Shown piece after piece: positions 5,325-60,777 of a stretch of 64,000 nucleotides of DNA. The notes under the pieces are model-generated. The model saw nothing but the letters and a program-made list of their open reading frames with translations. It did no database searches and was not told the DNA's origin. Position 1 is the first letter of the stretch; the number at the start of each line of letters is the position of its first letter. This DNA comes from Raillietiella orientalis (Eukaryota): positions 248,001 through 312,000 of the forward strand of contig JAYWIR010000040.1 of assembly GCA_036172245.1 (NCBI GenBank). Direction: 5' to 3'. The translations under genes were made by a program, and so were the position numbers.

Positions 5325-5870
5325 ATCTCCTGCGCTTGTTCTGCAGAGATCACATGGATCTCCTGCAGCAGCGCAAGGTCGAACGATCCTAGAATGGCGG
5401 CCATGTCTCGCCTTCTGCCGGCGTCTGTCATGCCGTTCACGTTCCAAACGGCGATGCGCAGACGACGGCGTGAGGGGATTACCGGCAATACTGCCGGGAA
5501 GATGACGGTGTGGGGAAACCCGCCTCTTCCGAGGCGGGTGAAATGACCATTAGGATTTCAGCCTCCTCAGGCACCTTGGGTACCTTTCCGGCTTCAACCC
5601 CCTCCATCTCCTCCGTGTCTGTGCGTGGTGGTCTCTCGGGTGACGATTCCTGGGATTCTCACACGCTCATTGCACTCTCGCAGTCCGAAGTCATCTCCAC
5701 GCCTTCAGCCTGGAGAGGGGCTATCCGGGGTTTGCTGGACTTCCTTCCAGCCTTCCGGCGGGGTGCCGCGGAGATGGAAACTTGGTTTCCGGCCTGCGCT
5801 TCGGGGTCGGAAGTTACCGACTCCTCGGTGGAGGCTGGACGCCTCACTGCCTTTTTGCAAGTCTTGAAGG
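5325..5870 (-). mobile_element. ORF1 C-terminus / ORF2 start of a D-like element, bounded by two insertions
   Basis: KKAVRRPAS...PRRKAGRKS, then RRRLRIAVWNVNGMTDAGRRRD...EQAQEI; similar to 12067-12620. Confidence 0.85.
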
Positions 5871-7977
5871 TTTACACCCGGGTACGCCCGGGGCGTTTAT
5901 TGTTAAAACTCTACATCCAAAGTACAAGGCCCCGCTCACGGCCATATACACTGGACCTGCCAGGACGCCAAGACGCAGCACAGCGTAGCGTTCCTCAGCA
6001 GCGAAGGGGGATGGGGATAAAACAAAAAGAAAAATAAAAAATAAACAGACAAAAAGAAGTTGGAGGGCAGGGAAGGGATCACTGAACGCTGTGAGGAGGA
6101 CTCATCCGTTGAAGGAAGCCCTCGAGGTCATTCCGTATATTCCCCAGTTGGGGCCATCCGGCAGCTCTCCGCATGAAGCGTTGGGCGTATGGGATGACAT
6201 CCCTCGCGTGTGGACCCACTCCTTCGTTATTGGCGTCGCTCCATGCCGCCACGATGCCACGGACACAGCACAAGGCTGCGATGGCTGCGGATGGGTGCAG
6301 TGCGTCCTTCACGAAGAGGGGCCGAAGAACGTCTCTGGGGGTGCTGCCCGTAGGGAGCCCGAGGGTCGCCCCGAACCGTTCCCAGCGGGGTCGGATGGCA
6401 GCACAGTCCACAATAAGGTGGCAGAGCGATTCCCGCTCTCCGCATTTGACACACTCAGGATCCACAGCTCCCCTTGTCCAGTAGAAGCGGCGTGCGTTGC
6501 AGGGTAAACCCAAGTGCAGCAGTAGCAACGCCGACTCTTGCCACTTAAGGGGCAGGATCCTGGATTCCTTCAGTACCGGGGGCCACTTCAGCACATCCGT
6601 AGGGATGGCGAGCAGCTCGCCCCATCTCATCAATCCACGCGGCTGGACCCTCGGGGTCGTGGCGTCCGCCAGTTCTCCTGTGGTCCAGCCGCTTAACATC
6701 TTCTCCCTGCCTGCAATCTGGCAGGTGACTTGCCACCTCGGCTTCTGGCGATCCTGAAGCGCCCTCAGGAGGTAGGGCATCGCCTTTGCAAGGGGGGTCG
6801 TCAACGCCCACCTCCGACTTCGGGGAAATCCCAGTATTTCCCGCAGGGTGCGGATGGCGTATGGGCCGATTCGCAGGCAGTTCATATTGTTTTCACTCCT
6901 CCGGTTCTGCTTAGCCCATGTGCCAGCAGACTCCTCCAACCAGGCGGAGGAGTTGACGGGGCCACAAATCATCCAATCGTTTGTCTTCGCCAGGGTTGCT
7001 ATGCGTCCGAGCATAAGGCCGCATATTCGGATCTTCCGGCCAGGGCACAGAAGAAACGACGCGAGTCCTTCGCATCGGGACAGACGCCTGGCGAGGAGGC
7101 ATGCCGGAACGCACCAAGGGGTGCTCCACATCTTCGCTGCGATGGCAAGGGTTCGCCACCGCAGCTGGATTTCCACGCGCTCCAGCGTCAGGAGGCCAAG
7201 GCCGCCGTCCCGACGCGGAGCGCACAAGTCCTTCAGAGGGACTCGGGGCCTACCCTTGCCCCAAAGGGCTATGCGGAGGAGGTTCCTTGTCCTCTTTTTG
7301 CATTCTCTGAGGGCGGAGCAAACAAAAAGCAAGAAGCGGAGGATGGGGGCCGCAAAAGCGTTCCAAAACGCGGCCTGTTCCGGCAAGTGAAACTTCCCTT
7401 CCAAGAACGGGCCGATCGATGTCTCAACTTTTTGAAGACAGCTGGACCACGCTTCCGCAGGGGAGTGGTCACCCAACGGCACACCAAGGTACTTGAGGCA
7501 CCTCGCCGTGGGGATCCCCAGACGGACCCAGTCCTGCTGCCCTGCAAACGCTGCACCTACTGGCACCACCAACGACTTCGCCCTGTTGACCTGCAGTCCG
7601 GTCCCACGGCTGAGCAGATCGAAGAAGTCTCCGACCGCCTTCGCCGGGGTAGACATAGGTAACAGGAGAAGAAGGTCGTCGGCATAGGCTGCTACGGAGG
7701 GCGTGCCGGGACACGAGCTCGGCAAGGACGCCAAAGTCACCATGTAGGCTCTCAGAACCAACTCAAAGTAGGTGCTGAAGAGCAGGGGACTCAAGCTATC
7801 TCCCTGCCTGATGCCCCGCCGCACCGTCACGCCATACACCTTCTGACTACTGAAAAAGATGGAGATAATCGCATTCCGCCAGCAAGAGCGCAGGTAGGTA
7901 ATCAAGGAGGGTGGGAAGCCCATGCGACCCAGGAGATTCAACAAAAGCCCCTGGTCAACACAGTCGAACGCCTTGTG
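5871..7977 (-). mobile_element. Family C, 3' half (RT from KAFD to 3' terminus); uninterrupted frame 7944-6079
   Basis: RQGDSLSP, YADD, CVKC..HLIVDC; AATAAA+hairpin at 5901-5875; very similar to 10000-12066. Confidence 0.92.
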
Positions 7978-8090
7978 CGCTCTAAGGTGGACGTGTTTTT
8001 TTGGTGCTCCTCGTGCCAGGAAGTCTCCCCCAGTGCAAGCGTCGTGTGGTTCGGTGGTCGATCAGGCAGCGATGCCTGACGCGATCGACG
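7978..8090 (+). mobile_element. Family D 5' terminus (5' UTR and first ORF1 codons MPD)
   Basis: ggacgtgttttt...ggtgctcctcgtgcc...ggtggtcgatcaggcagcgatgcctgac matches the reverse complement of 23600-23700. Confidence 0.85.
7989..8000 (+). promoter_or_regulatory. Representative 5'-terminal motif GGACGTGTTTTT (candidate internal promoter; 8 copies/variants)
   Basis: Lies within ~5-12 nt of the 5' junction and upstream of the ORF1 ATG in families C-G; function is inferred. Confidence 0.5.
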
Positions 8091-8754
8091 GAGTCGATTC
8101 CGGACCTACTTCTGGACTGCGGTGTCCTACAAGGACTGTGGCGTAGGCTGGCAACAGCACTAATGCATCCCGTGGACACCTCAAGAGACTTGCTGCGACG
8201 ATTTTTCACGCCGAGCGGGCTGTCACTAAGCGCAAGGATTGCAACCATAGGTTGCATACGCGCGATAGTTTCCGTCCGCCAGGCGTTGGTAATCAACGGA
8301 CAGCACCATGAGGTCATCAGCAAAGCATCCTTCTACATGGGAGCATCCGCTAGATGGCCTCATTTGACAGAGGAGACAAAAAGGAATCTCGCCGCAATAC
8401 ACCGCCGGTTTACACACCCTCAGCAGCGGCGAACCCCGTGATCATTGCCCTACCCTCCATAAACTAATTTTGTATTTTCTTTTTACACCCGCGTCCCCAT
8501 AGGCTCCGGAACATTTGAGGTGCTCATCGTTTAAATCCCCGTGAGTACGGAGCCTAACCAAAAACCCGTTACCCTTCCCTCCAGTTTTTGATTTTTGTTT
8601 GTTTCCCCTCATTCCTCCCACGCTGCGAGCGGTTTGTTTACCAGGCCTGCGTGCCGGTAATTTTTCTATGTTCTCTGTCGTTCTGTTGGTTGGGGACATT
8701 GTCCCTGACCAGTTTATTATTATTAATAAACGCCCCGGCGTGACCGGGTGATAA
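8091..8754 (+). mobile_element. 3' terminal fragment of an A/E-like element
   Basis: LLLDCG.LQGLWRRL...IHRRFT C-terminus, U-rich UTR, AATAAA+hairpin 8725-8750. Confidence 0.85.
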
Positions 8755-11700
8755 ATTTCAATCTCCGCCGGCTAACATGTGAGCCGGAAACACAGGTGAA
8801 CGCGATGAACAAGTTGTGCGCCGCCATGCGTGCGCGCAACTTGTTCGCGGGTGAGAGAGGAATGGTCCGCAGCATCGACCACGTCTTCCTCGACGCTGAC
8901 CTGTGTTCATGGGTCGGCAAACGGGGGAGGGTTGCGTCAACCTTTTCGGACCATTCCCGGTTAATTTTCGAGATGCGGCTTTGCGACAAAAAACCGCCAT
9001 CCAGGGACTGGCGTCTGCCAGGGGACTGGACGCGACTCTCAGGTGCGAAGGAACACCTTCGCGAATACCTGAGAGGCGTCACGCTCCGGAATCTCCAAGA
9101 CTGGGACCTTTTTAAGGAATCGGTCCGGGAATTCTGCGAGCAGTTCCCCCTGGACCGCCTGCCCTCCGGATTCGGCGAGGGTCCTCGCAACCATTCGGCC
9201 TATTTACAGGCCCGAAGGTACGAGCGAACCCCTAATGTCCGTCGCCTGGCCGAGTACCGCGCCGGGGCCAAACGCCAAGCCTGGCAATCCGGGTCGGTCA
9301 GCTTGCTGGACGACCAGGGCCGGGAATGTTCGTCCCCGGCGTCGGTACGGCATCTCGTGCGGAGTTATTATTCCTCCCTTTACGCCAGGGCGCCCCCGGA
9401 TCAAGATGCCTCTCGGCTATTGCTTCCGGATGGTGCCCCGGCAATAGGGGAGGAGGAGTCGTTAAGCCTCGATGAGCCTTTTACCACCGGCGAAATTCTC
9501 GCCGGTATCAAAAGGCTCAAGAGGCGGAAAGCTCCAGAGGAAGACGGCTTGCCCGCGGAGTTCTATCAGAGCTTCGCGGAAGAGCTGGCACCCCTGCTGC
9601 TTCAGCTGACAAGGCTGATCCGAGACGAAGGCGATGTTCCCGCCTCGTTTCGGTCAGCCAGAGTGAGGCTCCTTCCGAAAGGGGGAGACCTTAGGAATTT
9701 GAACAACTGGCGTCCGATCACGATTGTGAATACGGACGGCAAGTTGGTTGCCGGGCTATGGGCTTCGCGTCTGGGGCAGGTGGCAGACTCCATTATTAGT
9801 CCGGAGCAGACATATGCTGTTCCCGGGCGAAGTATGGATGCCAACCTCTTCTTCGCGAGCACATGGATGCACGCGCAGAGGTGTCAAAAGGAAGGGAAAG
9901 GAAAAATCGGCAACCCCACTTTGGGGCCGCCAGCAGGGCAGGGAATGGACTCCCGGGCGGGGAAGGGGGCCTTAGCGCTCGCAGTCGATCTCCATAAGGC
10001 GTCCGACTGTGTTGACCAGGGGCTTTTGTTGGAGCTCCTGGTTCGCATGGGCTTCCCACCCTCCCTGATCAACTACCTGCGCTCCTGCTGGCGCCATGCC
10101 ATCATTTCCGTCTCTTTCAGCAGTCAGAAGGTGCATGGCGTGCCGGTGCGGCGGGGCATCAGGCAGGGAGTTGGTGCTGAGAGCCTACAGGGTGACTTTG
10201 GCCTCCTTGCCGAGCTCGTGTCCCGGCACGCCCGCCGTAGCAGCCTAGGCCGACGACCTTCTGCTTCTGTTACCTATGTCCACCCCGGCGAATGCGGTCG
10301 GAGACTTCTTCGATCTGCTCAGCCGTGGGACCGGACTGCAGGTCAACAGGGCGAAGTCGTCGGTGGTGCCAGTAGGTGCGGCGTGGGCAGGGCACCAGGA
10401 CTGGGTCCGTCTGGGGATCCCCACGGCGAGGTGCCTCAAGTACCTTGGTGTGCCGTTGGGTGACTACTCTTCTGCGGAAGCGTGGTCCAGCTGTCTTAAA
10501 AAGTTGAGACGGCGATCGGCCCGTTCCTGGAAGGCAAGTTTCACTTGCCGGAACGGGCCGCGGTTTGGAACGCCTTCGCGGCCCCCATCCTCCGCCCCTT
10601 GCTTTTTGTTTGCCCCGCCCCCAGAGAATGCAAAAAGAGGACGAAGGACCTCCTCCGCATCGCCCTTTGGGGCAAGTGGAGGCCCCGAGTCCCTCTGCAG
10701 GACTTGTGCGCTCCGCGTCGGGACGGCGGCCTTGGCCTCCTGACGCTGGAGCGCGTGGAAATCCAGCTGCGGTGGCGAACCCTCGCCATCGCAGCGAAGA
10801 TGTGGAGCACCCCTTGGTGCGTTCCGCCCCGTCACCTCGCCAGGCGTGTCCCGATGCGATGGACTCGCGTCGTTTCTTCTGTGCCCTGGCCGGAAGATCC
10901 GAAGATGCGGCCTTATGCTCGGACGCATAGCAACCTTGGTGAAGACGAACATTTGCATGGTTTGTGGCCCCGCCAACTCCTCCGCCTGGTTATGAGTCTG
11001 CTGGCACATGGGCTAAGCTGAACCGGAGGAGGTTAAACCACATAAACTGCCTGCGAATCGGCCCATACGCCAACCGCACCCTGCGGGAAATACTGGAATT
11101 TCCTCGGAGTCGCAGGTGGGCGTTGACGACCCCCCTTGCTACGGCGATTCCCTACCTCCTGAGGGCGCTTCAGGATCGCCAGAAGCCGAGGTGGCAAGTC
11201 ACCTGCCAGATCGCAGGCAGGGAGAAGATGTTAAGCGGCTGGATCACAGGAGAACTGGCGGACGCCACGACCCCGAGCGTCCAGCCGCGTGGATTAATGA
11301 GATGGGGCGAGCTGCTCGCCATCCCTACGGATGTGCTGAAGTGGCCCCCGGTACTAAAGGAATCCAGGATCCTGCCCCTTAAGTGGCAAGAGTCGGCGTT
11401 GCTACTGCTGCACTGGGGATTACCCTGCAACGCACGCCGCTTCCACTGGACAAGGGGAACTGTGGATCCTGAGTGTGTCAGGTGCGGAGAGCGGGAATCG
11501 CTCTCCCACCTTATTGTGGACTGTGCTGCATCCGACCCCCCTGGGAACGGTTCTGGGCGACCCTAGGGCTCCCTACGAGCAGCACCCCCAGAGACGTTCT
11601 TCGGCCCCTCTTCGTGAAGGACGCACTGCAGCCAGCCGCAGCCATCGCAGCCTTGTGCTGTGTCCGTGGCATCGTGGCGGCATGGAGCGACGCCAATAAC

Positions 11701-12066
11701 GAAGGAGTGGGTCCACACGCGAGGGATGTCGTCCCATACGCCCAACGCTTCATGCGTAGAGCTGCCGGATGGCCCCAACTGGGGAATATACGGACGGACC
11801 TCGAGGGCTTCCTTCAACGGATGAACCCTCCTCACAGCGTTCAGTGATCCCTTCCCTGCCCTCCAACTTCTTTTTGTCTGTTTATTTTTTTTTATTATTT
11901 TTTTTTTTGTTTTATCCCCATCCCCCTTCGCTGCATAGGAACGCTACGCTGGGCTGCGTGTCGGCGTCCCGGCAGGTCCAGTGCATATGGCCGTGAGCGG
12001 GGCCTTGTACCGCGGATGTAGAGTTGTTTTTTAAAAATAAACGCCCCTGGCGTACCCGTGTGTAAA
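8755..12066 (+). mobile_element. Family C ORF2 from endonuclease (D)FNL to 3' terminus, frameshifted
   Basis: IDHVFLD, SDH, KAPEEDGLPAEFY, NNWRPIT, CVRC..HLIVDC; AATAAA 12036-12041 + degenerate hairpin. Confidence 0.92.
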
Positions 12067-15000
12067 CCCCCAAGGCTGGCAAGAAGGCCGTAAGGCGTCC
12101 GGCCTCCCCTCAGGAGTTCCCCACTTTCGACCCCGAGGTGGAGGCCGGAAGCGCAGCCTGCGTTTCCACGGCACCGCGCAAGAAGGCTGGACGTAAGTCC
12201 ACAAAGCCAAGGAAGCTCGTCTCCCCCGTCGAAGGGGAAGAGATGGCTTCCGCGAGCGAGGGCGCCATGAGCGTGGGAAACTCTCGGGACCCGTCGACCG
12301 AGAGACTCCCACGCGCGGACACGGAGGGGATGGAGGGGGTGGAGGCCGAACAGGTGCCTCAGGTGCCTGAGAAGGCCGAAACCCCCATGGACATCCCGCC
12401 CGCCTGGCAAGAGGCGGGCTCCCCCACACCTTAATCTTCCCAGCAGTAATGCCGGGAATCTCCTCCCGCCGTCGTCTGCGCATCGCCGTTTGGAACGTGA
12501 ACGGCATGACAGACGCCGGCAGGAGACGAGACATGGCCGCCCTTCTCGAGTCCTACGACCTTGCGCTGCTGCAGGAGATCCACGTGATCTCTGCAGAACA
12601 AGCGCAATAGATCGAACGGATCTCCGGAGGGCGGCTATGGTACAGGCGTGGGAGAGCGAAAACTTGCGGTGTCGCCTACCTGCTTCGGCCAGCCGTCGAG
12701 GCCGCGGCTAGGGGCGTGCGGTTCGACGATCACGGTCGTGTCGGCCAGCTGACTCTCAGGTGGTCCGAGTCGATTGATCTGATCGTCACGAACGTGTACG
12801 CACCGAGCGGCAAGGACCTGATGAACAGAAGGGCGAGGAAAGAGCTTTTCCTTGCCCTCCGGCGAGACTGGCTGAGCGAAGCAGGCGTGCGGAATGCCCA
12901 TCTGGTTGCTGGCGATTTCAACGTTCTCCTGAAACCAGATGAGCAGAATCCTGTGCGTGACCTGGTCAACGAGGTGTGCATGGCGGTGCACACCTGTAAT
13001 CTGTTGGCCAGTGCACCGGGGATGGAAGGCAGCATTGACCACCTGTTTCTTGACGAGCACCTGTGCCCTCGCGTGGACAGGCGCGGGAAGTTACCGTGCG
13101 AGCTGTCCGACCACCGCCCGCTAGTCCTCGAAATCCATCCGCGCGACAGGGGTCCCCCTCGTCAGCGTGGCGTCTCCCAGGAAAATGGCTGAAGCTCCCG
13201 GACGCGGCGGAACATCTCCGCACGTTCATACGGAGCTTCAGGCTGCGGACACTCCAGGATTGGGACCGCTTCAAGCGGTCGGTCCAGGAGTTTTGCGACC
13301 AGTTCCCTCTGCACCGCCTACCTACGGGTTTTGGGACCGGGGTCCTTAAGGAACGAGCCTACCTGCAGGCCTGTCGTTACGCCAGGACCCTCGACATCCT
13401 CAGGCTGGCGGAATACAAAGCGGGAGCCGAGAGGCAAGCATGGCACTCCGGATCGGCCAGCTTACTGGACGATCAGGGCCAGGAGCACACGGCACTTGCT
13501 TAAATCCGCGGCCTGCTGCGGAGTTACTACTCCTCCCTGTATGCCAGGGCACCTCCGGATAGAAACGTCTCACGACTCCTGCTTCCGGAAAGCGCTCCAG
13601 CGATCGCAAAGGAGCAGAGAAAGACCCTCGACGAGCCTTTCACGATGGACGAGATCCTCTCGGCCATCGGAAAGCTCAAAAGGCGAAAGGCTCCAGGGGA
13701 GGACGGCCTGCCCGCGGAGTTTGATCAAACTTTCGCGGCTGAGCTTAGCCCCCTGGTACAGCAACTCACCTTGCTGATACGCGAGACAGGTGACGTTCCC
13801 GCCTCGTTTCGTTCGGCAAAGGTGCGGCTCCTCCCTAAGGGAGGAGATCTGAGAAGCGTGAACAACTGGCGTCCCATCACAATAGTGAATGCGCACGCGT
13901 AGTTGATAGCCAAGATGTGGGCAGAGCGTCTGGGACGGGTTACCAACATCTTCATCAGCCCGGAACAGACATATGCTGTTCCCGGGCGAAGCATGGAGCC
14001 GAACCTGTTACACGCTTCCACCTGGCTAGAACTCCAACATGAAAGGAGCTTGGTGCGCAACCGGAATTCCGGTGCGTGCGCCGGCAAGGGGTTGGATGGT
14101 CGGGTGGGGGAGGGAGCCCTTGCGGACGCAATCGACTTGCGAAAAGCATTCGATTGCGTCGACCAGCATCTCCTTCTGGAGATTTTGGAACGCTTGGGCT
14201 GAACGGCCTCATTAGTAACCTATCTGCGCTCCTGCTGGCGCGAAGCGCTCAACAATGTTACTTTCAGCGGGCAGACCGTGCACGGCGTGCCGGTGCGGCG
14301 TGGGATCCGGCAGGGAGACAGCCTGAGCCCCTTGCTCTTCAGTACCTGCTTTGAGTTGGTACTGAGAGAGCACAGGGGAACTCTGGCGCACCTACCGCCC
14401 GACTGTCCCGGTACGCCGGCCGTTTCAGCATACGCGGACGACCTTCTGCGGCTGCTCCCTATGTCCACCCCGGCTGCGGCGGTCGAGGAGTTCTTCGACC
14501 TGCTGCATAGGGGAACCGGACTTACGGTGAACAGGGCGAAGTCGTCCGCGATGCCAGTTGATGCGGCGTGGGCAGGGCAGCAGGACTGGGTCCGTTTTGA
14601 GATCCCCACGGTGAGGTACTTCAAGTACCTTGGTGTGCCGTTGGGGGACTACTCCCTTGCGGAAGCGTGGTCCAGCTGCCTCCAAACAGTAGAGACGGCG
14701 ATCGGCCCGTTCCGACGCGGCAGGTTTTTCCTGCCTGAACGGGCCGCGGTTTGGAACACGTTCGCGGCTGTTCTCCTCCGCTTCCTTCTTTTTGTTTGTT
14801 CCCCCACAGGGAGGGACAAAAAGCGGACGAAGGACCTCCTCCGTATCGCCCTTTGAGGCAACGGGAGGGCCCGAGTCCGCCTAAAGGACTTGTGCGCTCC
14901 TCGTCGGGATAGTGGTCTGGGCCTTCTGACGCTGGAGCGGCTGGAGCTTCAGCTCCAGTTCCGCTTGTCGGCACTCGTTCCAGAGTTGTCATGCACCTGT

Positions 15001-16246
15001 TGGTGCGTCCCTGCACGTCTCCTACTTCAGCAAGCCACCGGCAAGACGGGACTGACGTCGTTTCTTGCACTCCCTCTCCGCGTCAACCGATGCGGACTCC
15101 AGCTACAAAGGGTGGCTGCGCTGTATCGGAAAAACCCAGGATTGCTCACCTGTCGCCCGTTTAACGGTAGTGCCTGGTTGCAGTAAACCGTTCGAACGTG
15201 GGGACAGTTCGGCATGCAACGCTCCCAACAGGAACGAAGGTTCCAGTTTGGGGGTTACAGAAGTTGCACGCTCGGCGATATCCTGGAGGATCCAAAGAAG
15301 AGAGCGTGAGCAGGTAGAACCATCCTCGCTGCTGCGCTGCCCTCCCTGATGGAAGATCTGGACAGCGATGTTGCGGCGAAGTGGGTGGTTACAGCAACAA
15401 TCTCCGGAAAGGAGAAGAAGATGGAAGAGTGGAAGACGAACCAGTTAACAGACGCTGCGACCCCGTGTACGCCTCCCAATGGACTTCTGAGCTGGGGCGC
15501 GCTGCTCGATGTTCCCATTGAACATCTGAAGTGGCCCACGGTGCTCATGAACACTTCCGCCCTCCCCTTAAAATGGCAGGAGTCGGCTCTCCTGTTGCAG
15601 CACCTGGGACTATCCTGCAACGCCCGGCGACACCACTGGACCTCGGAAGCGGTGGACCCCAATTGCGTCAGGTGTGAGGAACGGGAGTCCCTCACCCACC
15701 TGCTAGTGGATTGGGTTGCCTTTCGGCCCCTTTGGTTTCGCTTTGCCGCAGCCATCGGAATCCCCTGCGGCAACCCCAGGGATGCACTGAAAGCCCTCTT
15801 CTTTGCCGACGCCCTTCGGCCAGCGGCCTCGTTAGCAGCTTTGTCCTGCCTACGCGGGATTGTCACCACTTGGAGCAAGGCGACGGGAGGACAACGCGAC
15901 CAGGGTGCCATCCAGCCAGCCTCTTAGTTCCTGAGGAGGGCCTCCCGATGGCCCCACCTGGATCCAGGAATACAGAAGAAGCTTGCCGGCATCCTGAAAA
16001 GGATGCAACGGCCCCACATGCAACTGTGATCCCTCCCTTACCCTCCCAAGTTTTCTTTTCTTTTTTGTTTTGTTTTTTGTATTTCCCCCTTCCTCCTGCT
16101 GCCGTGTTGGACCGTACTGGTCTGCGAACCGGTGAAACGGCAGGCTCTGTGTTTCTTCGTGCGTAGCTGGAGCAATGGTCCAGCCACCGCACGTCGTTGT
16201 AAATGTTTATTTTACAATAAACGCCCCTGCGAAATCCGGGTGAAAA
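12067..16246 (+). mobile_element. Family D: ORF1 C-terminus, decayed ORF2 (12449-~16029), 3' terminus
   Basis: TAATG 12447-12451, WNVNG, GDFN, DLRKAFD, YADD, CVRC..HLLVD; many stops; AATAAA+hairpin 16216-16242. Confidence 0.92.
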
Positions 16247-19200
16247 TCGAACGCCTTGTGGAGATCGACTGCGACCGCCAAGGCACCTGGCGTTCCCTCC
16301 TGCCGTCGGCGCCTGTTCTTCTTGCCTGCGGCAGTGACTTTCTGAGCAGCCTGGCTCTGCTGCGCCACAACTTCCTTCAGCTGCATCCATGTACGCGCGA
16401 AAAGGATGTTCGCCTCCATGGATCGTCCCGGAACCGCGTAGGTTTGTTCCGGGCTCACCACAGATTCCGCGATACTTCCTAACCGCGCGACACACAGCTT
16501 GGAAAACAACTTCACGTCCGAGTTCACCAAGGTGATCGGACGCCAGTTGTCAAGTTGACGCAAGTCTCCGCCTTTTGGCAGGAAACGCACCTTTGCTGAG
16601 CGGAAGGAATCCGGGACATTCCCGGATTCACTCATCAGCGTCGCGAGTTTCAGCATCAAGGGAATGAGCTCCTCTGCGAAGCACTGATAAAACTCTGCAG
16701 GGAGCCCATCCTCGTCTGGCGCCTTTCGTCTCTTCAGCCCAGCGATTGCGGACGAAAATTCATCCGTCGTGAAGGGCTCGTTGAGACGTTCGCGTTCCTC
16801 CTCGCCGAAAAACCGAGCATTCTGAGACAGTAGTATCTTAGAAAGAATATCCTCCGTTGAAGATTCCGCGTACAGCGAGGAGTAGTAGCGTCTCACAATG
16901 CGGCGTACTTCGGCTGGGGCCGAACATTCTGGCCCTTGTCGTCCAACAGGCATGCTGCTCCGGTCTGCCAGACCAGGCGCTCGGCCCTCGCCTTGTACTC
17001 TGCGAGACGCCCGACATCCGCGCGTCTTGAAAACGTGCGGGCCTGCAGAAAGTCTCTACTGTTGGCCACGCCCTCTCCGAAACCGCGTGGAAGCCGGTGC
17101 AAGGGGAATTGTCAGCAGTACTCGCGGACAGATCTTTTGAGATCGTCCCAGTCCCCAAGTTCTCGAATGGCAAAGCCTCGGAGGTATCCACGTAGATGCT
17201 CCGCAGCCTCCGGTTGGCTAAGCCAATCCGCCTGCATCCTCCAGCTTTGCAACGGAGGCCCCCTGCCTGGCGGAAGAATCTCAAACTCCAACCTGTGGTG
17301 GTCAGAAAGCTCAGTCAACAATCTTCCTCTCCTACCCACACGCGAATGCAGGTTTTCATCGAGGAAAACGTGATCGAGCGATCTTTCCATTCCAGGATCG
17401 CTGACCATCAAGTTGGCGGCGTGCACGGACGCGCACATCTCGATGGGCAGCGCGCGCTCCCTCGGGCGGCTCCAATCGTCGGAGAGCAGGCGGACGTTGA
17501 AGTTTCCAGCGACGAGGTGCGCCACTTGGAAGCCGGAGTTGTTGAGCCACTGGCTCTGCACCTCACCAAAGAAAGCTACTCTTTCTTCGAGGTAGCGAGA
17601 GCCACTCGGCGCGTAGACGTTTGTAACGACGAGATCGATGGACTCGGACCACTTGATGACAAGCTGGCCTATCCGTCCGTCGTCATCGAAACGAACACTA
17701 CGCACCGCTTCCGCCATTTTTCCTCTTACGAGGAACGCGACGCCGCACGTGTGTGCGCCGCCGCACCGCCAATGTAGCGTTCCGCCTGCGCGCTCCTCGA
17801 TTTCGGCTGCCTGCTCGTCGGAGATTACGTGAATCTCCTGCAGGAGCGCGAGGTCGAAGGGGCGCAGGGCGTTGGCTACTAATCGCCTCTTCTCGTCGTT
17901 CTGTAGTCCGTTCACGTTCCAACACGTTACGGACAGACGACGAGAAGACGCGATTCCCCGCATTACTGCTGGGAAGGTGGCGGCTTTTTGCTCGCTTTAT
18001 CCGGCGAGCAGACGGCGAGCAGCACGACTGGCTGGAGGGGACGGTCGCCACCGTCCTCTGTCGTGCTGCATGCATGTAATGCCTCCACGCCAGGCTTAAC
18101 CCCGTTGGGTTTCGTGGAAACTTCGCGTGGCTTTGTGGCTAGCGTTGCCTGGCTGCCTACTTTTGATCGGCGCGCACGCGCTTTCGAACGAGTTGTCCTC
18201 GTCTCGGTGATCGGAACTGCATCCATTTCGGAGTCCGACCGGCGCATGTTCGATCGGGTTTCGGTCTTCCACGAAATAGTGACAGGTTCTGCTGGATTGA
18301 CAGCTGTCCTGTTGTTTTTTCCGTCTCGAGAGCATCGCTTTTGGTGACGGTTGCTTTCATGGCGCGCGCGTTTTCAGCGTGCTCACGCGAAGTTGCACGA
18401 GAGACCTTTGCTGAAGACTTCTTTACTTCATTACAATTCCTCACTTCGCGTGGCGCCGTAAATGGAGATTGTGCTCCATTGCCATCTTTGAAGCCATCCG
18501 CGTCTTTGGACAGGAGCACTTTCCATGGCTCCGACACGCTTGTCATGGACGCTGCCTTCGGTAGGGCTTTTAATCCCTTCGTTGGCATGGCATCCGCGTC
18601 AGTCGAGAGCTTGCTCTCCGACTGCGTCGGCGTGAGATTTTTCTCCGCTTTCGCGGTGTTGGATCGCGACGCAGATTTTTTTTTGCGGACTTTCGAAGTC
18701 GACACGGCACAACCCTTCTTACGCGATTTGGGCTTCTCAGCCACTGCGGGAGTTGAAGGAATGGATCTGACGGTACTGGAAGTGTCCTTAACGCCGTTCT
18801 CCATTGGCGTCACCGCCGGCTGCTCGAACTCCGAGAGAGCCGGGCGTGCTTGGGAAAGACCGCTATTGCGCCTAGGGGGACTTACCTTTGCCCCGGATTC
18901 CCTGCACCCTTTTTTTTGCGGCTCCCCTGCCGCGAGAGGGGGCGCGCAGGCCTTCGCATGCGAGGTTTCCTGCTGCTTTGGGGCGACATTCCGCCTCGCG
19001 TTTTTTCGGAATTTCTGCCGTGGGGTCTCCAGGTTTTTCGCAGAATTTTTCTTTTTATCCGCGCTTTCTTTTTTAAAATGGAGCTCCGCGGCTGCCTTTT
19101 TTCGCAAAAGATCCGGGCAATTTTTCAATTGGTGCCCTGATAGTTTGCAATAACGGCATTTTCCAGAGGGGCATTTATCCAAACAATGCCCCTCCTTCCC

Positions 19201-19962
19201 GCATTGCTCGCATGTTCTTACTTTGCCCACGAACCACAGGTGAACGACCGTGTCTTTCAGCTGTAGTTTGGTGGGCAGCAGACGGCGGTCCGGCATTGTA
19301 AGCCGGACTCCAGCGAATCCGCTGTGTATGGACGGGAAGTCATTGAGGTTGCTACGCACCCTCCACAGCGCATGGACCGTGGCGAATTTCGCCAACGCGT
19401 TCCGAATATCAATAACGGAGATTTGCGACTCGATGTCGAAAATCTCCGCAACAAATGAGTCGTCCATGGCGGCCGGGAAGTCCTTCTGGCCACGGATCGA
19501 CAACGGGGTGCGCAGCAAGCGTTGCACAAGTGCAGCGTCTTTGCAACGCACCTTTAAATAGCCCATGTCTTTTACGGACATAATGGCGAGAAGGTCCTCC
19601 TCCCGCACGCCAACATGGGTCAGTTCATCGTTGAACTGATTTCCGTCGCGCGCAGAAAGAAAACCACTCACCTTATATCGGAGAGCAGGTCTATAGCCTT
19701 GGGCTACGTATGCCCGCAACTCCGACTCGTCGAGTGGTTTCCCTTTGACGGCTGCTGTGGCGGCAACGTCAGCAAAACTCCTCTCCATTGGCGACAAAGA
19801 CGAAGTGGAGGCGGCCGTCGGTTCCGCGATTGCAGATCCGGATGCTGTTCCTCCAACTTCAGTAGCTTCAAGTTGGGTCAACATCGTCGTCAAAATGTAC
19901 GACGCCAAGATGAAGCGGATGAAAGCACGGAGACGAGAGCGAAGAAAAACACGTCCGCACTC
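16247..19962 (-). mobile_element. Family E, 5' part (5' UTR, ORF1, endonuclease, RT up to KAFD)
   Basis: 5' motif at 19956-19945; ORF1 with two CCHC knuckles; TAATG at 17965-17961; ORF2 CWNVNG...DLHKAFD. Confidence 0.92.
17963..19884 (-). pseudogene. Family E ORF1 (gag-like, 2x CCHC zinc knuckle, long K/S/A-rich tail), probable frameshift near 18340
   Basis: CEQCGKEGHCLDKC and CRYCKLSGHQLKNC; C-terminus (LQPVVLL..PPSQQ) lies in another frame. Confidence 0.8.
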
Positions 19963-22270
19963 GATTGAAATCTCCCGCTATCAGGTGAGGCTACCGCACG
20001 CTCGTGTTCGCCAGCCAGTCTCCCTTCAGGGATTCAAGCAGCCTGCTACGGTTGCTGTATCCCTTTTTGACCGGTTCGGACGTACACATTCGTGACGATC
20101 AGATCGATCGAGTCGGACCAGCCGACAGTCAGCTGACCGACCCGAGCGTCGTCATCGAAGCGCACGCCCTTCACGGCAGCGTCGATGGCCGGCTTGACGA
20201 AGAACGCGACCCCGCAGGTGTTGCGGATGCCGCATTGCCAGTACAGCCGACCCCCCGCGATCGCCTCGATCTCCTGGACGTCTGCCGCGTTGATCACATG
20301 GATCTCCTGCAACAGGGCCAGGTCGAACTCCCGCAGGGTGTCGGCTGTATCTCGCCTGTTACCCTCGTCGCGCAGCCCGTTGACATTCCAACAGGCCGCG
20401 CGAATCCGACGGCGACTGGCGAGCCCAGGTGTTACTCCTGGGAAGATGGCGATGAGGCGTCCGCCACCTGCTTGGGCAAGACGCTAGGTGGAGGAGGAGG
20501 GTCAGGTGCTGAAGGCACCTCGTCCCCCTCCTCCATAGGTAACGGCGCGTCGAGCCGATCAGCCACAGGTGGTGTCGCCTACCTGTTCGCCCTCCTCCAC
20601 GTGGGCGGGCTGTTCAGGCTCGGCGACTGCAGGAAGGACTTCGCCCCCCTGCTCACCCTCCTTCATAAAGGTGGCTGGCTCGACGGCTTCCGAGCGTGGG
20701 AGTTCCCCCTCTGGGATTCCCACGCTAGCGCTACCTTCCTGCTTCTCCTCCTCGCTGGTGGAAGGGAGGCGCCTCCTGGGTTTCTGGGACTTGCGTCCCG
20801 ACTTCCTGGGGGGTGCCTCCGAGGAGAAGGATGTACTTCCGGTCCCAGGTCTAACTCATCTGTGGGGGCCTTCTTCGCCGGAGCCGGCCTTCGCACGGCC
20901 TTGCGCGATGGGTTCTCACGCTCGGCCAGCGTGACCGCGAGCTCCTCCGTTGCCTGCGCGAACGCGGCGTCCGCGGCTTCGACCGCCGCTTTGTCGCGCG
21001 GCTCACCCTCTGTGTAAACAGAGGGTTCGCCGTCGCGAGCCTCGGGCGCAGCGGAAACGGCAGGGGGAGGATCGTCGCTCCGGGTGGCAACCTCGGGAAC
21101 GACGCTTCGTTCCAGTGCCACCGTGCACTCGCCAGAGTTTTCGAGCGCGGACCGGGTTTTTTCGGCTTACCGGCCGTCTTGCGCTCTTTGCTCTCCGCGG
21201 ATGGGAGTTTCTTTGGCTTTCTGGCCTCTACAAGCTGCCATCCCTCTTCGCCTTCCACCGTTTCAGAAGGTTTATCCTCCGAATTACGCGCCGGAGGTTG
21301 AGGTGTTTGCAGCTTGTGCTGGCCCTTTTCCACTTTAGGTCTAGAGACCTTTGAAGCGCGTTTCCCCTGCGCTTTTTTCGCGGCAGGGGGAACCGGGGTG
21401 GGGCGTTTGGGGCACACGCGCCGAACGTGGCCCCGCTCCCCGCACAAATGGCATTGTATATTGGGACACCTTTTACGTAGGTGTCCCACGGTATCACAAT
21501 GCCCGCAATACCGGGGCTTCCCTACATACCACAGGTCGACGTTTTCTTGCGCCACCTGTAGTTTGTGGGGAAGCCCACAATTCTCCCTTACGGTGATCCG
21601 CGCTGCAGCCTGCCCACCAAAAAGGCTATCGAAGCCGTCGAAAATGGAGGGTTCCGGCCACAGTGCGTGCACCTCACCGTTCTTTCGCAGTTCTTCACCA
21701 ACCGCTGACCGCGTCTTGCGGCTGGTGATGCCAGTCATGTGGACCACCACGGAGCGGTCCACTGATACTGGCAGGATCTTGCGGCCGTCTACGTTCAGCG
21801 GCGCATGGATTAGGCGGTGAGCCAAGGTGACATCTTTGGAGACCACCTCGACCCGCTGCCCGCCGCTGAGGACAGAGAGGCCGTCCAGATCCTTCTCAGT
21901 GACATTCGCGTCCTTCAACGCTTTGGTGAAGGCGCGCGCTGTCCGGCCGTCGAACAAGTTGCCTACCTGGTAGACCAGCGATCTCTTGTACTCAGAGGCC
22001 TTGTATGCGGCCATCTCGGCCATGGTTTCTGCGCTGGGCGCGTCCACCATGGCGCTCCATGTCCTCGGCGTGGCCGGGGATGATTCCGGGGCGGCTGCCC
22101 CTGCTCCAGTAGGCTGTGGGGGCGAACTAGCCTCCCCCAGTCCCACCTCCATCGCGGTGTCCTCTGGCGTCGTGGCCATTGGACACCGACGATGTACACA
22201 AAACACCACACACAAGAAAGCGCTTTCCTACTACCCTTTGAGGAGTGAAGGAAAAACACGTCCTCCAACT
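19963..22270 (-). mobile_element. Family C, 5' part (5' UTR, ORF1, endonuclease up to GDFN)
   Basis: Starts AGTTGGAGGACGTGTTTTT; ORF1 MATTPEDTAMEV..CGHCDTVGHLRKRC..CHLCGERGHVRRVC; ORF2 CWNVNGLRDEG..HLIAGDFN. Confidence 0.92.
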
Positions 22271-23705
22271 GGCCTTGGAGGGGGCTGGCTGCAACGATGC
22301 TGCCAGCTCCTCCGCCGCACGCTCGAAGGCGGCGTCATCGATCACCGTCTCGATTACGGACGCTTCCGCCGGTTCGCTCCCCACGCTGTTGACATTTTCA
22401 ACAGTGGATTGCTCGTCGGAAGCAGCGATTTCTACCTTGCGGCGTTCGACGAAGACGAGTTCCACGACGACACTGCATTCTTTTAAATTCTCGCTAACCT
22501 GCTGTTTTTTATTTTGGTAGGCGAGCTTTTTTTCAATTCGTCGTTCTTTCTTTGACTTTTTCTTTTTCGCTGTGGCTTCTTGCCATTCCGACACCTGACC
22601 GCTTTTGTCGATCTTTTCGGCATTCGTTGCCGGGGTGTCGGCTGAGGCCTGGAACACGGGAGTGGGTGGCACAGCTTGAGCGGCAGCCTTCGCCGCCAGC
22701 CTTTTCTGTAGCAGCCGCGCGCGTTTTTTTAGGTTCCTCGCGGAATCCACGCGCACAGCGGATTGTGGACACACTTTCTTCGTGTGGCCCATTGTCCCGC
22801 ATACCAGGCACTGTACGTTGGGGCACCTCCTTTTGAGGTGTGCCGACGTGTTGCAGAAGCCACAGTATTTGGGCTTCCCCACGTACCAGAGGTCGACGCT
22901 TTCTCCGCCGACCACCAGTTTGTGGGGATGGGTAGAGCCCTCCCGAACGGTTACACGGGCAGCCGTGAGGCCGCACTGAACTGTGGTATAGTCCTCGAAA
23001 GGACTAGGCTTGGTCCATACTGCATGGACCGTGCCTTCTTTTCCCAACACGGCGCGTAACTGTTCTTTCCGCATCCGCGCGGTAACTCCTAAAAGGTAAA
23101 CCACCATACTGTGGTCCGCCGCAACGGAAAGGAGCCTGCGTGTCCCCATTACCACGGGGGTTTTAAGCAGACGTTGGGACAGATCTGCATGTTTGCAGAT
23201 CACCTCTACGTACTGCCCCCCGCTACGAATGGTCATAGCGCACAGCTCCTCTTTAACATCGAGAGCGCGCATCCCCTTCGAAAAGGCGCGCGCACTCTCA
23301 GAAGAATACAAATTTCCTACCTTGTAGAATAGTGATGGGTTATACCCCTCTTCCACATATGCAGATAATTCCGCCGCGGCTGCAGGAGATGGCGCCGACA
23401 CGACGGCGCTCCACGCCCGCGCTGCAGCGGGGACCGGTTTTGTGGGGGCGGACGTCCCCACCTCCTTCGCCACTGAAGGCGACGTTGCCGCCGCCCCCTG
23501 GCACTTCAACATTTCTAGAGGCGACGTTGCCGCCGCCACTTGGCACTCAATTTCTTCAGGAGGCGACGTTGCCACCGCCCCCTGACACGCACTGGTGGTC
23601 GTGTCAGGCATTGCTGCCTGATCGACCACCACCACACACGAAGCCTACACCTATGGACCGTTCCCGGCACGAGGAGCACCGAGAAAACACGTCCGCTCTA
23701 GCCGA
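22271..23705 (-). mobile_element. Family D, 5' part (5' UTR and ORF1 up to LQPAPSKA)
   Basis: 5' motif ggacgtgttttc at ~23694-23683; ORF1 MPDTTTS..CGFCNTSAHLKRRC..CLVCGTMGHTKKVC. Confidence 0.9.
23478..23590 (-). repeat. Three 42-bp tandem repeats in the family D ORF1 N-terminus (CQ.AAATSP)
   Basis: ggcgacgttgcc recurs at 23478, 23520 and 23562. Confidence 0.85.
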
Positions 23706-25820
23706 CGTAAAGCTTTCGACTGCGTCGACCAGGAACACCTTTTGGAGCTCCTGGAACGCATGGGTTTCCCGGCCGTGCTCCAGTCCTACCTGCGCTCCTG
23801 CTGGCGCAAAGCGTCAATAAATATTGGTTTCAGCGGCCGGCACGTGCACGGCGTGCCAGTGCGCCGCGGTATCCGGCAGGGTGACAGCCTGAGCCCCTTG
23901 CTCTTCAGCATCTACTTCGAGTTGGTGCTGAGGGCATACAGGGTAACTCTGGCAACCCTACCGAGATCGTGTGTCGGCACGCCTGCCGTGTTGGCCTATG
24001 CAGACGATCTTCTGCTGCTGCTTCCCGGGTCCACCTAGGCGAGTGCGCTCGAGGACTTCTTCGAGTTGCTGCGCCGCGGAACGGGCCTGGAGGTGAACAG
24101 GGCGAAGTCGTCCATGGTCTTTGTGGGTTCGGCGTGGGCTGGACGGTCGGACTGGATCCGCTTGGTGATCCCCACGGGCAGGTGCTTCAAGCACCTCGGC
24201 GTACCGTTGGGGGACTTCTGCGCAGCAGAAGCCTGGTCCGACCGTCTCCAAAAGGCAGCGTTGGCGATCGGTCCGTTCCAAGAAGGCAACTTCTACTTGC
24301 AGGAACGGGCCGCGGTGTGGAACGCGTTTGCGGCTCCCCTCCTTCGCCCCCTACTTTTTGTTTGCCCCGTTCCTTATTTTATTTGGAAACGAGCAGCGGG
24401 CCTCCTGAGGACAGTCCTTTGGGGCAAAGGGAGGTCCCGTGTGAGGATCAAAGACTTGTGCGCTCCACGTAAGGACGGTGGACTTGGCGTACTTACGTTG
24501 GAGCGCATGAAACTGCAGCTTGGTTTAAGGACTCTCGCCCTCGCGGCTGAATTGTGGGACACGCCTTGGTGCGTTCCAGCACGCCTCCTGGCCCAACAAA
24601 CCTGCGGAATCGGTGGACTTTTGTCGTTTCTGTCTGCGCGCGTCTGCAGAAGAGCATACTGTGGCTCTATGCTGCGACGCATCTTCGTTGCGGTTCGGGA
24701 GAACGCCTCGATCTCCTGCCACCCAGGGAACTACTCCGCCTGGTTGCACGAGTCAGTCTCCACCTGGGAAAAGATCCACGTTCCGGCGGGCACAAGGATC
24801 ACTTGTATGAAAAGGCACGCCCGCTGGACGCTGCAGGAGATCGTGCAGTCCCACGACAAGCTTCTGTGGGCCTTGATAATCCCCCTCGCCTCAGTGCTGC
24901 CCTTCCTTGTGGATGCCAGGGACAGTAGCGAGCAGGGGAAATGGACCGTGTCCTGCACTATAGGCGGCAGGACACAATCGATAAAGGCGTGGACATCTCG
25001 GCAGCTAGCTGACGCTGCGACGCCGAGTGTCCCGCTCAACGGAATTCGACGGTGGGGCGAGCTACTCGGACTATCTCCGGAGGAGATGAAGTGGCCCCCA
25101 GCGTCCTGGAACAGTGGATCCCTCCCCCTGAAATGGCAGGATGTGGCGTTGCTTGTGGTACTCTGGGGATTACCATTCAAAGCACGCCTGCACCACACCA
25201 CCCGGGGGGCTGTGGATCCCCAGTGCGACCGCTGCGGGGAAAAAGAGACCTTCCCCCACCTTCTCATTGAGTGCAGTGCCATCCGCCCTTTATGGGATCG
25301 CCTTACGGCGATCCTGGACTTCCGCGGATGCGGCCCCAAGGACGTTTTTAGGCGCCTCTTCTGTAGTGACGCCTTGTTCCCCCCCGCTTCTGTAGCAATC
25401 CTCTGCTGCATTCGAGGGATCGTGGCGGCTTGGAACCCCACCAGGAGAAGACGTCAGCCAACTGGCAACGCCTTACGATGGACTCGCATTTTCGCGCTCA
25501 GTGTCTGCAAGTGGAGCCACTTGGGCTCTGAAAGGACTCAGCTTGTCCGGATCGTGGATAGGATCTAGAGGACCTGCCCACGCGCAACGTAATCCCTTCC
25601 CTGCCCTCCCACCCCTAAAACATTTGTTCCCCCCCCCACATTTGAACTTTTTGTTTCTTTTTGTTTGTTATTTCTCATCCCCGCGCATCGCAAGGACCTC
25701 TCCGGCATGCAGCCGGTAACCAGCAAGCTGTTTTGGAGTGGTGAACCTTCGGGTTTGCCATGCGACATTTCTATGTAATTTTATTTCTAAGAAATAAATG
25801 CCCCGGAACATCCGGGTGTG
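23706..25820 (+). mobile_element. Family J, 3' half (RT from KAFD to 3' terminus)
   Basis: KAFDCVDQ, RQGDSLSP, YADD, CDRC..HLLIEC; AATAAA+hairpin 25793-25818. Confidence 0.9.
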
Positions 25821-33005: not shown

Positions 33006-34352
33006 GGCCTTGGGGGCGGCCGGCTGCAACGAGGCAGCGAGTTCCTCCGCGGCGCGCTCGAAGGCGACGTCATCGAGCCTACGCTCGATGACAAACGCCG
33101 CCGCCTCGCTCCCCTCCTCGTTGACTTTGTCAATGGAGGGTTGAGCAGGGGCAGCAGCGAGTTCTTTAGCGCCGCATTCGTCGATGGCGAAAATCCGCTC
33201 TACGACGACGCAGCAGCTTTTTGTTTTTTGGCGGCGCGGAGCGGTTTCGCTCCGTTTCGCGATTTTTTGTGCCTGTATGGCACTTTTCTTTTTAGAGTTG
33301 ACCTCCTACCAACCAGACTCTTGGCTGACGTCCTCAACCTCTTCGACGTTTTTAGCCGTGGTCTCGGGGCTGGCCTTCGCCTCGGTGGCGGAGGTTATCT
33401 CTTAAGCTGCAGCTCGCGTTGCCAGCTTCTTTCTTTTCTTCGCCGCGCGCTTCCTTGGGTGTTTTGCGGACACGACGCGGACTGAGTTTTGGGGGCACAC
33501 CAGACGGGTGTGCCCAGCTTGTTGGCACTGCTGGCACTGCACGCTCGGACACCTCATTTTAAGGTGACCAAAGCTGCTGCAGCAGCCGCAGAACTTGTGT
33601 TTCCCCACGTACCAAACGTCAACGGATTCACTGTTGACGGTGAGTTTGTGGGGAAACTCACACCCTTCGCGAACCGTCACTCGCGCTGCACCCAGGCCGC
33701 AAAGCACCCCGTCGTAATCAACAAAAGTAGTAGGCTTTCCCCACAGCGCGTGGACAGTTGCAAATTTTTCTAGTTCGTTCCGGACGGTTTTTTTCGTCAT
33801 CCGGAACGTAATACCGGTCAGGTGAATGATCACCGACCGGTCTTCTGTAATTGGGAGAAGCTCTGGCTGCCCATAATTACCGGGGTTCGCAAAAGTCTCT
33901 GCGCAAGAGTTGCCTCCTTGCAGATAACTTCCACAAATTGACCCCCGATTCTGACGGACATAGCCAGAAGCTCCTCCTTTTGTACGCTGAGAACGCGTAT
34001 CGCCTGCAAGAAGGCGCGCGCGTTCACGGGAGAATGTAGACCGCCTACCTTGTATAGGAGGGGTGGGTTATACCCCTCTTCCAGGTAGGCGCGCATCTCC
34101 GCCGTAACCGCTGGCGTAGGTGCCGCAGCCACGGCGTTCCAAGTCCTGGGTAGGGCCGGGCGCGCATCCGTGCTGGCGGGAGCGCCCACTGATGCGTAAG
34201 CCCCCACCTCCATTCCCTCCGGGGGCAATGGGGTCATCGCCCCCGGATCCTCACCGGTGGTGGTATCAGGCATTGCTGCCTAATCCTCCACTCACACCAC
34301 CCAAAAGCACCAACGCAAACCAAACTCAGGGGCAGCGAAAAGACACGTCCAT
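33006..34352 (-). mobile_element. Family F, 5' part (5' UTR and ORF1 up to QPAAPKA)
   Basis: ORF1 MPDTTTGEDPGAM.. nearly the same as 37554-38820; 5' motif ggacgtgtctttt at ~34350-34338. Confidence 0.9.
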
Positions 34353-37373: not shown

Positions 37374-37472
37374 ACACCAAATTCCCGGGGCGGGCGGTGC
37401 ACGGGGAACTCCTCGCACAACTCCCGCACCGAGACTTTCATGCGGTCCCAGTCATGGAGATTCCGGAGCGTC
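37374..37472 (-). mobile_element. ~100-bp remnant of family G ORF2 linker (continuation of 43007-45611)
   Basis: TLRNLHDWDRMKVSVRELCEEFPVHR..FG; shares the target duplication with 43007. Confidence 0.8.
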
Positions 37473-37553
37473 GAGCGGACCTGTCTTTTCGTTGCTCCTG
37501 AGTTCCATTTCCGTTGGTGCTTGTGCGTGGTGTGGGTGGAGGATTAGGCAGAA

Positions 37554-42200: not shown

Positions 42201-42794
42201 ACGGGTCAGCTCACCAACGCTGCGACCCCGAGGACCACCCCAAATGGACTTTTGCGCTGAAGAGAGCTACTGGATGTTCCAGAGGAACATCTCGAGTGGC
42301 CTCCGGTGCTCATGGACTCGCGCACCCTCCCCATGAAGTGGCAACAGTCGGCACTGATGGTGTTGCATTGGGGGCTTCCTTGCAACGCCCGCCGACACCA
42401 CTGGACGCGGGGGGGTGTCAACCCTAATTGTGTCAGGTGCGGGGAGAAGGAATACCTCCCCCACCTGTTAGTGGATTGTGTTGCCCTCCATCCCTTGTGG
42501 GAACGCTTTGCCGCAGCCCTGGGGATCCCCGGAGGCAACCCCAGAGACGCTTTGCGCCCCCTCTTCGTCCGTGACGCCCTGCCTCCAGCGGCCTCGCTTG
42601 CAGCCCTGTGCTGCCTACGCGGGATCATCGTGGCATGGAGCAAAGCGACGGGAGGATCCAGCGACAGGGATGCCAACGTGTATGCTGCCCGTTTCCTCAG
42701 GATGGCGACGCGATGGCCCCATCTGGAACCACACAAGCAGAAACAGCTTGCCGGCATCCTCCAGAGGATGACGGACCCTCCCAGCAGACTGTGA
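39212..42794 (+). pseudogene. Family F ORF2 (APE-RT-CCHC, ~1190 aa), one frameshift near 40750 and one stop at 42258-42260
   Basis: ORF pieces 39212-40909, 40737-42260 and 42306-42794 carry all motifs in order. Confidence 0.9.
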
Positions 42795-60764: not shown

Positions 60765-60777
60765 GTCTTCCCCTTTT

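Follow-up and report, generated by a model that had tools for sequence, protein, structure and literature searches.

Antisense junctions of an L1-like LINE clade recur at two fixed sites in the ORF2 of other LINEs in a nested cluster of Raillietiella orientalis

A 64,000-nucleotide stretch of the Raillietiella orientalis genome (assembly GCA_036172245.1, contig JAYWIR010000040.1, positions 248,001 to 312,000 of the forward strand; hereafter the window, in whose own numbering all positions are given) is tiled by pieces of non-LTR (non-long-terminal-repeat) retrotransposons, and the ends of one clade of these, termed D, lie in the window at two fixed positions inside the coding sequence of other elements. 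The window has a G+C content of 58%; nested pieces of long interspersed elements (LINEs) cover 734 to 54181, and a LINE of a further family, Z, stands at both ends. About 60 pieces of open reading frame (ORF) 2, on both strands, were placed by tblastn using the ORF2 at 27171-30815 as a ruler, and residue numbers below are those of this reference ORF2 at 27171. Pfam searches of the long ORFs returned Exo_endo_phos (apurinic/apyrimidinic endonuclease, APE), RVT_1 and zf-RVT; the ORF at 27171-29318 matched Exo_endo_phos (E 2.9e-17) and RVT_1 (5.7e-16), with matching pieces on other copies. Cys/His knuckle patterns are visible in the ORF1 translations of D and of a second family, F, and the zf-CCHC match on the F ORF1 is weak (19.7 bits, under the 20.8 cut-off). 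The solved proteins nearest to D ORF2 were human LINE-1 ORF2p (E 6e-32) and L1 endonucleases, and no R1/TRAS endonuclease was among its solved-protein matches at E<=0.01. Protein searches gave 10 and 2 matches, with one close relative (P0001, 63-64%), and an Atlas search gave generic clusters with APE and reverse transcriptase (RT) domains, one of them with Chlorophyta as its commonest phylum, which is a lead at most; these searches did not help to place the clade. The hallmarks of LINE integration are present, namely target-site duplications (an exact one of 16 bp), an exact 14-bp repeat, many 5'-truncated copies and short A tails. Judged by its sequence, the window is a nest of L1-like APE-type LINEs with an ORF1 bearing putative zinc knuckles, an APE, an RT and a C-terminal zinc-binding domain. 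A group II intron, prompted by GTGCG at 7974, was rejected: Rfam returned no match at the gathering threshold and four weak, unrelated ones at E<=1, and the ORFs are those of APE and RT LINEs.

Element ends in the window carry a 3' signature, AATAAACGCCCC, followed by a short hairpin (CCCGG...CCGGG), then TG and several A at most. The signature had 18 matches at up to two mismatches against 3.8 expected; 14 were used as element ends, and those at 7940, 10019, 19168 and 39983, without a hairpin-and-A-tail end, were dropped. In the form AATAAA(C/T)G(C/T)CCC plus hairpin, TG and 1-5 A, one signature is common to LINE families that are otherwise 45-70% identical (14 ends, 5295-52704), which suggests a joint 3' recognition element and possible cross-mobilisation. 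The full-length 5' ends of D, F and a third family, U, have GGACGTGT(T/C)TTT at 0-11 nt from the end (7989, 19945, 22252, 23683, 32987, 34339 and 37477). By itself this motif is not rarer than chance (13 matches, a number reached by 16 of 100 shuffles); all seven matches with 0-1 mismatch fall at alignment break points, and the motif may be a shared start or promoter element.

Seven D-clade termini lie in the window, four of them 5' ends (7978, 23705, 34355 and 37470) and three 3' ends (16246, 43006 and 52704). All seven stand antisense in an ORF2, three at residues 573-577 (site A) and four at 270-275 (site B), within about 2 nt and in hosts of different clades. Rough arithmetic, taking five to six independent events in two 5-nt windows among about 7,200 strand-specific ORF2 positions, puts the chance of this near 1e-8. 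The recurrence is real and not a matter of chance. We favour, with moderate confidence, the reading that the D clade comprises target-specific L1-like LINEs whose targets are other LINEs.

At site A, the 14-mer TCGAACGCCTTGTG is found in perfect form at exactly two places in the window, 7964-7977 before a D 5' end and 16247-16260 after a D-type 3' end, as the initial annotation of this DNA had stated. At up to two mismatches it has 7 matches against 0.62 expected, and none of 100 shuffles reached 7. The D-type 5' end running from 7978 matches the reverse complement of 23599-23701 with 78.6% identity over 103 nt, and the 3' end at 16246 bears the signature AATAAACGCCCC...CCGGGTGAAAA. The same annotation placed a second D 5' end, at 23705, against the KAFD codons of another family, and this was borne out: CGTAAAGCTTTCGA, unique in the window, lies at 23706-23719 in the LINE H2 and directly adjoins this minus-strand end. 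Both 14-mers are antisense or sense forms of the (H/R)-K-A-F-D codons of ORF2, RT motif A; they are homologous and not identical, with 4 of 14 positions different in a by-eye comparison, and the site-A junctions fall on the same nucleotide to within 1 nt. The flanks of the three termini belong to three clades, FX, H2 and U (E1/Y-like).

Comparison of the FX host (7977>6079) with the H2 host (23706>25568) gave a synonymous divergence (dS) of about 1.1 and a ratio of nonsynonymous to synonymous divergence (dN/dS) of 0.33 over 619 codons, and a dN/dS of 0.17 over the 119 codons adjoining the junction. The FX flank retains an open frame of 633 codons; that of H2 is interrupted by one in-frame stop, near 24033. 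The divergence of these hosts arose under purifying selection, before insertion split the RT, and the site-A junctions are therefore independent and not copies of one old junction. Two other accounts of this arrangement were rejected. If H2 were the inserted element beside the D 5' end, its truncation point would need to match the first junction, and there is no duplication around H2; twin priming on one RNA fails because the inverted pieces belong to different families.

Site B lies in the linker between APE and RT and is not a catalytic motif. It holds the only full-length D in the window (37470-43006), whose 16-bp duplication ATGGAGATTCCGGAGC occurs twice without mismatch in the window, where 0.66 matches would be expected at up to three mismatches. 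The Db 5' ends at 34355 and 37470 adjoin the same host nucleotide, the host beginning GCTCC in both; the Db 5' parts are 84-95% identical and the adjoining 100 nt of host 75%. The site-B hosts are X2-like, W and E1-like. KAFD had been proposed as the target of D; three termini do lie there, but it is not the only site of D, as the other four of the seven lie at site B. The full-length D has an ORF2 frameshift near 40750 (region 40737-40909; ruler residue about 518) and, to judge from this lesion, is probably not autonomous.

Table 1. Features of the window and junctions at recurrent sites (UTR, untranslated region; aa, amino acids)
Feature	Position	Strand or orientation	Remarks
Da-down: D ORF1 tail and APE start	5325..5866	-	follows FX 3' end at site O; cut at 5329/5330 by E1 3' end
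FX (X1) ORF2, KAFD to stop, and 3' end	5866..7977	-	633 codons open; 91-98% identical to 9993-12066
14-mer copy 1	7964..7977	+	antisense of H-K-A-F-D codons; junction with D 5' end
Da-type 5' end, 107 nt	7978..8084	+	78.6% identical to 23701-23599
3' terminal part of E1/Y-clade LINE, probably U-type	8090..8755	+	ends in 3' signature
FX (X1) LINE, APE motif GDFN (residue 160) to 3' end	8756..12066	+	own KAFD codons intact at 9993
D-type element, ORF1 tail (site O) through ORF2 to 3' end	12067..16246	+	77.7% identical to full-length D
14-mer copy 2	16247..16260	+	directly after D-type 3' end
Element U: 5' end, ORF1 (583 aa), APE, RT to KAFD	16247..19956	-	groups with E1/Y, not X
F, 5' part of FX: 5' end, ORF1 with putative zinc knuckles, APE to GDFN	19957..22274	-	sense insertion at site O of Da
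Da 5' part (5' UTR and ORF1 to site O)	22275..23705	-	5' end adjoins H2 KAFD codons
H2 LINE ORF2, KAFD to 3' end	23706..25820	+	one internal stop
Db copy 3, 5' part	33010..34355	-	5' end adjoins X2-like LINE (34356-37373, plus)
Full-length Db	37470..43006	+	exact 16-bp duplication ATGGAGATTCCGGAGC at 37454-37469 and 43007-43022; antisense in host W, ORF2 residues 270-275
5'-truncated D-clade 3' part	52103..52704	+	3' end adjoins antisense E1-like ORF2, residue 274, at most 2 nt from Db 3' junction
Site O, D ORF1 tail (CCCCCAAGGC...)	F 5' ends 22274, 33009; X 3' ends 12066, 5866	sense	identity steps at junction
APE residues 58-59	E1-type 3' ends 5329, 49160	antisense	
APE residue 69	Y 3' end 30973	antisense	
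Residues 300-301	X2-type 3' ends 37373, 46235	antisense	
APE motif GDFN	U 5' end and E1/Y-clade 3' end	sense	

The 8.3-kb insert between the two copies of TCGAACGCCTTGTG (7978-16246) is not one element: it consists of four LINE pieces, all on the plus strand (Table 1). Sliding comparisons against 8756-12066, the X-type copy, gave 91-98% identity for the left flank (7977>5866) and 49-71% for the right flank (16247>), with a sharp step at KAFD. In 700-nt comparisons the left flank went with the X copies (92%, for the copy at 9993, and 83%) and the right flank, U, with E1 and Y (70-72%), the latter being 59-61% identical to X-like elements. Resolved to the nucleotide, the switch of clade coincides with the insert, within the interval from -21 to +14 of the 14-mer. 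The two flanks of the insert belong to different LINE clades, and the host is chimeric at the site. When the insert and one 14-mer were removed in silico, a frame of 897 codons opened across the site; it was rejected as proof of a single host, given flanks of different clades, because the frame would be kept whichever two ORF2 halves met at the same codon. The claim that D inserted antisense at KAFD with a 14-bp duplication thus stands in part. The antisense orientation, the 14-nt stagger and the use of more than one host family hold, whereas the insert is composite, and its flanks, being of two clades, leave it unproven that the 14-bp repeat is a duplication made by a single simple insertion.

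On the minus strand, the order of pieces is the Da 5' part (23705-22275), F (22274-19957), U (19956-16247), the insert (16246-7978), X (7977-5866) and the rest of Da (5866-5325). F and X seem to be the two halves of a single family, FX; W, which is F-like, overlaps an X copy at 77.7%. The order fits a nest in which Da holds FX at its ORF1 tail and FX holds U at GDFN. The stretch from the KAFD of U to the KAFD of FX is missing, exactly at the position of the D composite. We infer that a D composite transcript with older nested pieces landed where U-type and FX-type copies each offered KAFD. The first cut may have fallen in U and the second in FX, with deletion of the DNA between the two KAFD sites; or U and FX may first have recombined at the conserved motif-A stretch, a simple insertion with a true 14-bp duplication following afterwards. 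These two histories fit equally well. Insertions of human L1 that join non-contiguous target DNA are known (large target-site deletions, 5' chimeras). Events of this kind would explain the chimeric flanks; here, both break points would be the same motif in two neighbouring LINE copies.

On the reading that we favour, the D clade would integrate by target-primed reverse transcription with staggered cuts 14-16 nt apart (the duplications measure 13-16 nt), and would land antisense in the ORF2 of another LINE, either at site A ((H/R)KAFD, RT motif A) or at site B (the APE-RT linker). The APE endonuclease of D itself would recognise both sites, as in the target-specific groups R1 and Tx1. The A-tails between D 3' ends and their targets vary in length (GTGAAAA, GTTTCA and GTGAAAAA), and priming near a poly(A) tail therefore fits better than the copying of a read-through flank. 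In the tree of 3' ends, the D-clade ends 16246, 43006 and 52704 group together at 0.994 support.

Several observations weigh against target specificity of the D clade. The sample is small, with two to three events at site A and three at site B in one 64-kb window, and composite elements have evidently been mobilised, so that inheritance could account for some of the shared junctions. The D at 23705 has no partner junction in the window; the only site-A duplication is the one with flanks of different clades, and there is no clean single-host KAFD insertion. The user of site A at 16246 is sister, in the 3'-end tree, to the user of site B at 52704, which misfits a scheme of one lineage, one endonuclease and one site. 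The only obvious motif that the two sites share is GACC, 7-8 nt past the nick, a post hoc match too weak to use. Relatives outside this DNA did not emerge from metagenome scans: the Da 5' pattern had 0 matches, and the D ORF1 alignment gave 279 pattern stretches, of which tblastn confirmed 0.

The main rival is homing guided by homology without a specific nuclease, in which D RNA or complementary DNA (cDNA) would pair with the target through a read-through flank, or recombine at the most conserved stretch of ORF2, the site being inherited from the location of the parent copy. The 40 nt through the KAFD codons are indeed the best conserved near the site across families (bin -20..-1, 14-19 of 20 identical), site use departs from the 3'-end tree, and the host is chimeric exactly at the KAFD stretch; all three count for homing. 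The varying A-tails speak against it, however, as do site-B hosts that are just 75% identical beside the junction, and the targeted 14-mers differ at 4 of 14 positions and the 16-mers at 5 of 16 (by-eye comparisons), yet the junction position is exact. We consider homing of this kind rather unlikely.

The initial annotation went further and inferred that targeting KAFD gives a site present in nearly all relatives and disables the RT of a competitor; read strictly, D would have evolved KAFD specificity for the latter reason while sparing itself. Host RT genes are split at KAFD by D, those of FX, H2 and U all being broken. However, four of the seven D termini lie at a non-catalytic site, and self-avoidance was not seen, since the KAFD codons of D at 40905 (CGTAAAGCATTCGA) match CGTAAAGCTTTCGA, a target that was hit, at 13 of 14 positions. 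Seven intact KAFD copies persist in the window, two of them sharing downstream sequence with a hit host, and sites in APE and the ORF1 tail are used repeatedly by other families. In the literature covered, target-specific LINEs are usually explained as settling in multicopy DNA because it is a harmless place to land (PMC4640811). The window holds no evidence for a competitor-killing purpose, which we regard as improbable.

Least credible of all, and very improbable in our judgement, is the absence of any targeting, the shared junctions being copies of a few ancient ones that segmental or inverted duplication, or composite retrotransposition, multiplied inside the repeat cluster: the window does have three inverted duplications, the insert at 7978-16246 does show that composites move, and identity is about 72% on both sides when 7977/7978 is compared with 23706/23705, but the site-A hosts have long open frames and dN/dS values of 0.17-0.33, unlike neutral decay after duplication, the flanks come from different clades, and identity steps sharply at other junctions (F 80-100% against D about 60%, and X 91-98% against D-down 64-79%, at site O; Db 84-95% against 75% in its flank).

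Fixed positions are also reused by other families, with 2-4 junctions per recurrent site (Table 1). Partner sites in the window were not found for the 3' ends at 25820, 47245 and 51416, the W 5' end and both E1 5' ends. This reuse by several families looks like a general habit of targeting repeated DNA. A further recurrent site may lie at ORF1 residue about 197-198, where two junctions occur in different families, one with an H2 3' end followed by sense ORF1 (25821-26058) and one with an E1-like 5' end beside Z ORF1 (54209-54451). Two F copies (20219-20818 and about 30977-31575) are 97-100% identical over about 600 nt and 78-92% elsewhere, a pattern that suggests recent gene conversion or a mosaic origin.

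It is conceivable, and we put it forward tentatively, that a small grammar built the cluster, with LINE families specific for one another and every family having a landing site of its own within another. D would go antisense into ORF2, at motif A or the linker; FX would go sense into the ORF1 tail of D, and U-type elements sense into the GDFN of FX; E1 and Y would go antisense into APE residues 58-69, and X2 antisense into residues 300-301. A Russian-doll order of D, FX, U and again D, each holding the next, would then recur again and again, and where neighbouring copies were cut at one and the same motif, deletions and chimeras would result. The interpretation given in the initial annotation is right in part. 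Fixed landing sites inside other LINEs, as suggested by few junctions in one window, make a broader and more telling picture than KAFD alone.

Contigs of a related strain were drawn from one public DNA run, in which 19% of the sampled words were found and 32 of 633 contigs reached at least 99% identity; joins were taken at 80% likeness and are weak evidence. Among the joints listed, and each on one contig, 12067 was joined to 22287, leaving D uninterrupted across site O; 8084 was joined to 23584, giving an intact Da 5' region; and 8754 was joined to 20243, which sets an E1/Y-type 3' end on the antisense F APE near residue 69. Contig record 3 ends at 16247, which may only reflect a repeat boundary. 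Other joints among those listed switch family at conserved ORF2 positions (9586/16619, 14681/24263, 24247/10511 and 24293/10546), a hint that recombinant, mosaic LINE lineages may be common in this organism.

Family Z is a more distant LINE, with 25-30% amino-acid identity to the other families. It is present at 54208-58363 and 59822-64000, two copies at 91% identity, and as a fragment at 97-733 (95%). Both E1-type 5' ends, at 734 and 54181, adjoin antisense Z sequence, though not at the same Z position. Three pairs of inverted repeats, separated by spacers of 1.6-2.9 kb, occur in the window: 5331-7977 with 9993-12606 (~91%), 33007-34453 with 37374-38821 (~88%) and 49164-49811 with 51416-52063 (~96%). 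For the first two pairs, the explanation is that elements inserted independently, and in opposite orientation, at the same sites.

Nesting of LINEs has precedents. Nested self-targeting has been reported for Zepp and ZeppL (Craig et al., PMC8226300; Blanc et al. 2012, PMC3446292), and the second of these sources describes nested clusters of Zepp; in these green-algal systems, as here, L1-type LINEs lie in clusters of nested, often 5'-truncated copies. The likeness of the window to Zepp and ZeppL is one of LINE-in-LINE nesting. In contrast to the present cluster, a fixed nucleotide position, antisense orientation and cross-family rules are not described in the passages on Zepp and ZeppL, which do not include the primary Zepp papers. 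Cnl1 of Cryptococcus is described, in the passage on it, as a LINE that prefers to insert within itself, forming nested arrays in tandem (same) orientation near telomere repeats (PMC9942834); in the window, by comparison, every D terminus is antisense, insertions run between several families and coding motifs serve as targets. Target-specific APE LINEs occur in the Tx1 and R1 clades, and their reported targets, as far as this source was covered, include transposons (PMC4640811). These share with D an APE-type endonuclease, precise recurrent junctions in a repeated target and target-site duplications. D differs in that the solved proteins nearest to its ORF2 are human L1 ORF2p and L1 endonuclease, and in that its target is the coding sequence of other LINEs, RT motif A included; the likeness of D to R1 and Tx1 is one of targeting mode. 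Targeting of LINE coding motifs across families, in antisense and precise to the nucleotide, was not found described in the full-text literature covered, to which the primary Zepp papers and supplements did not belong, and an earlier description is possible. Nested self-targeting LINE clusters are already known, and this comparison suggests that the new part is the proposed precise, family-specific sites inside LINE coding sequence, among them one of the most conserved motifs of RT.

In green algae, according to the passages on these elements, self-targeting LINE clusters mark putative centromeres, and the passages on Zepp, ZeppL and Cnl1 state no rule, at the level of nucleotides, by which new copies would find old ones. 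Targeting of the kind proposed for D, if true genome-wide, would provide a testable mechanism for the growth of such clusters and a natural collection of L1-like endonucleases that recognise new sequences, and would explain chimeric LINE copies at conserved motifs. The grammar of mutually specific families, if it holds, would be a self-feeding system that explains the growth and turnover of LINE-only clusters, as at algal centromeres, without hits to genes.

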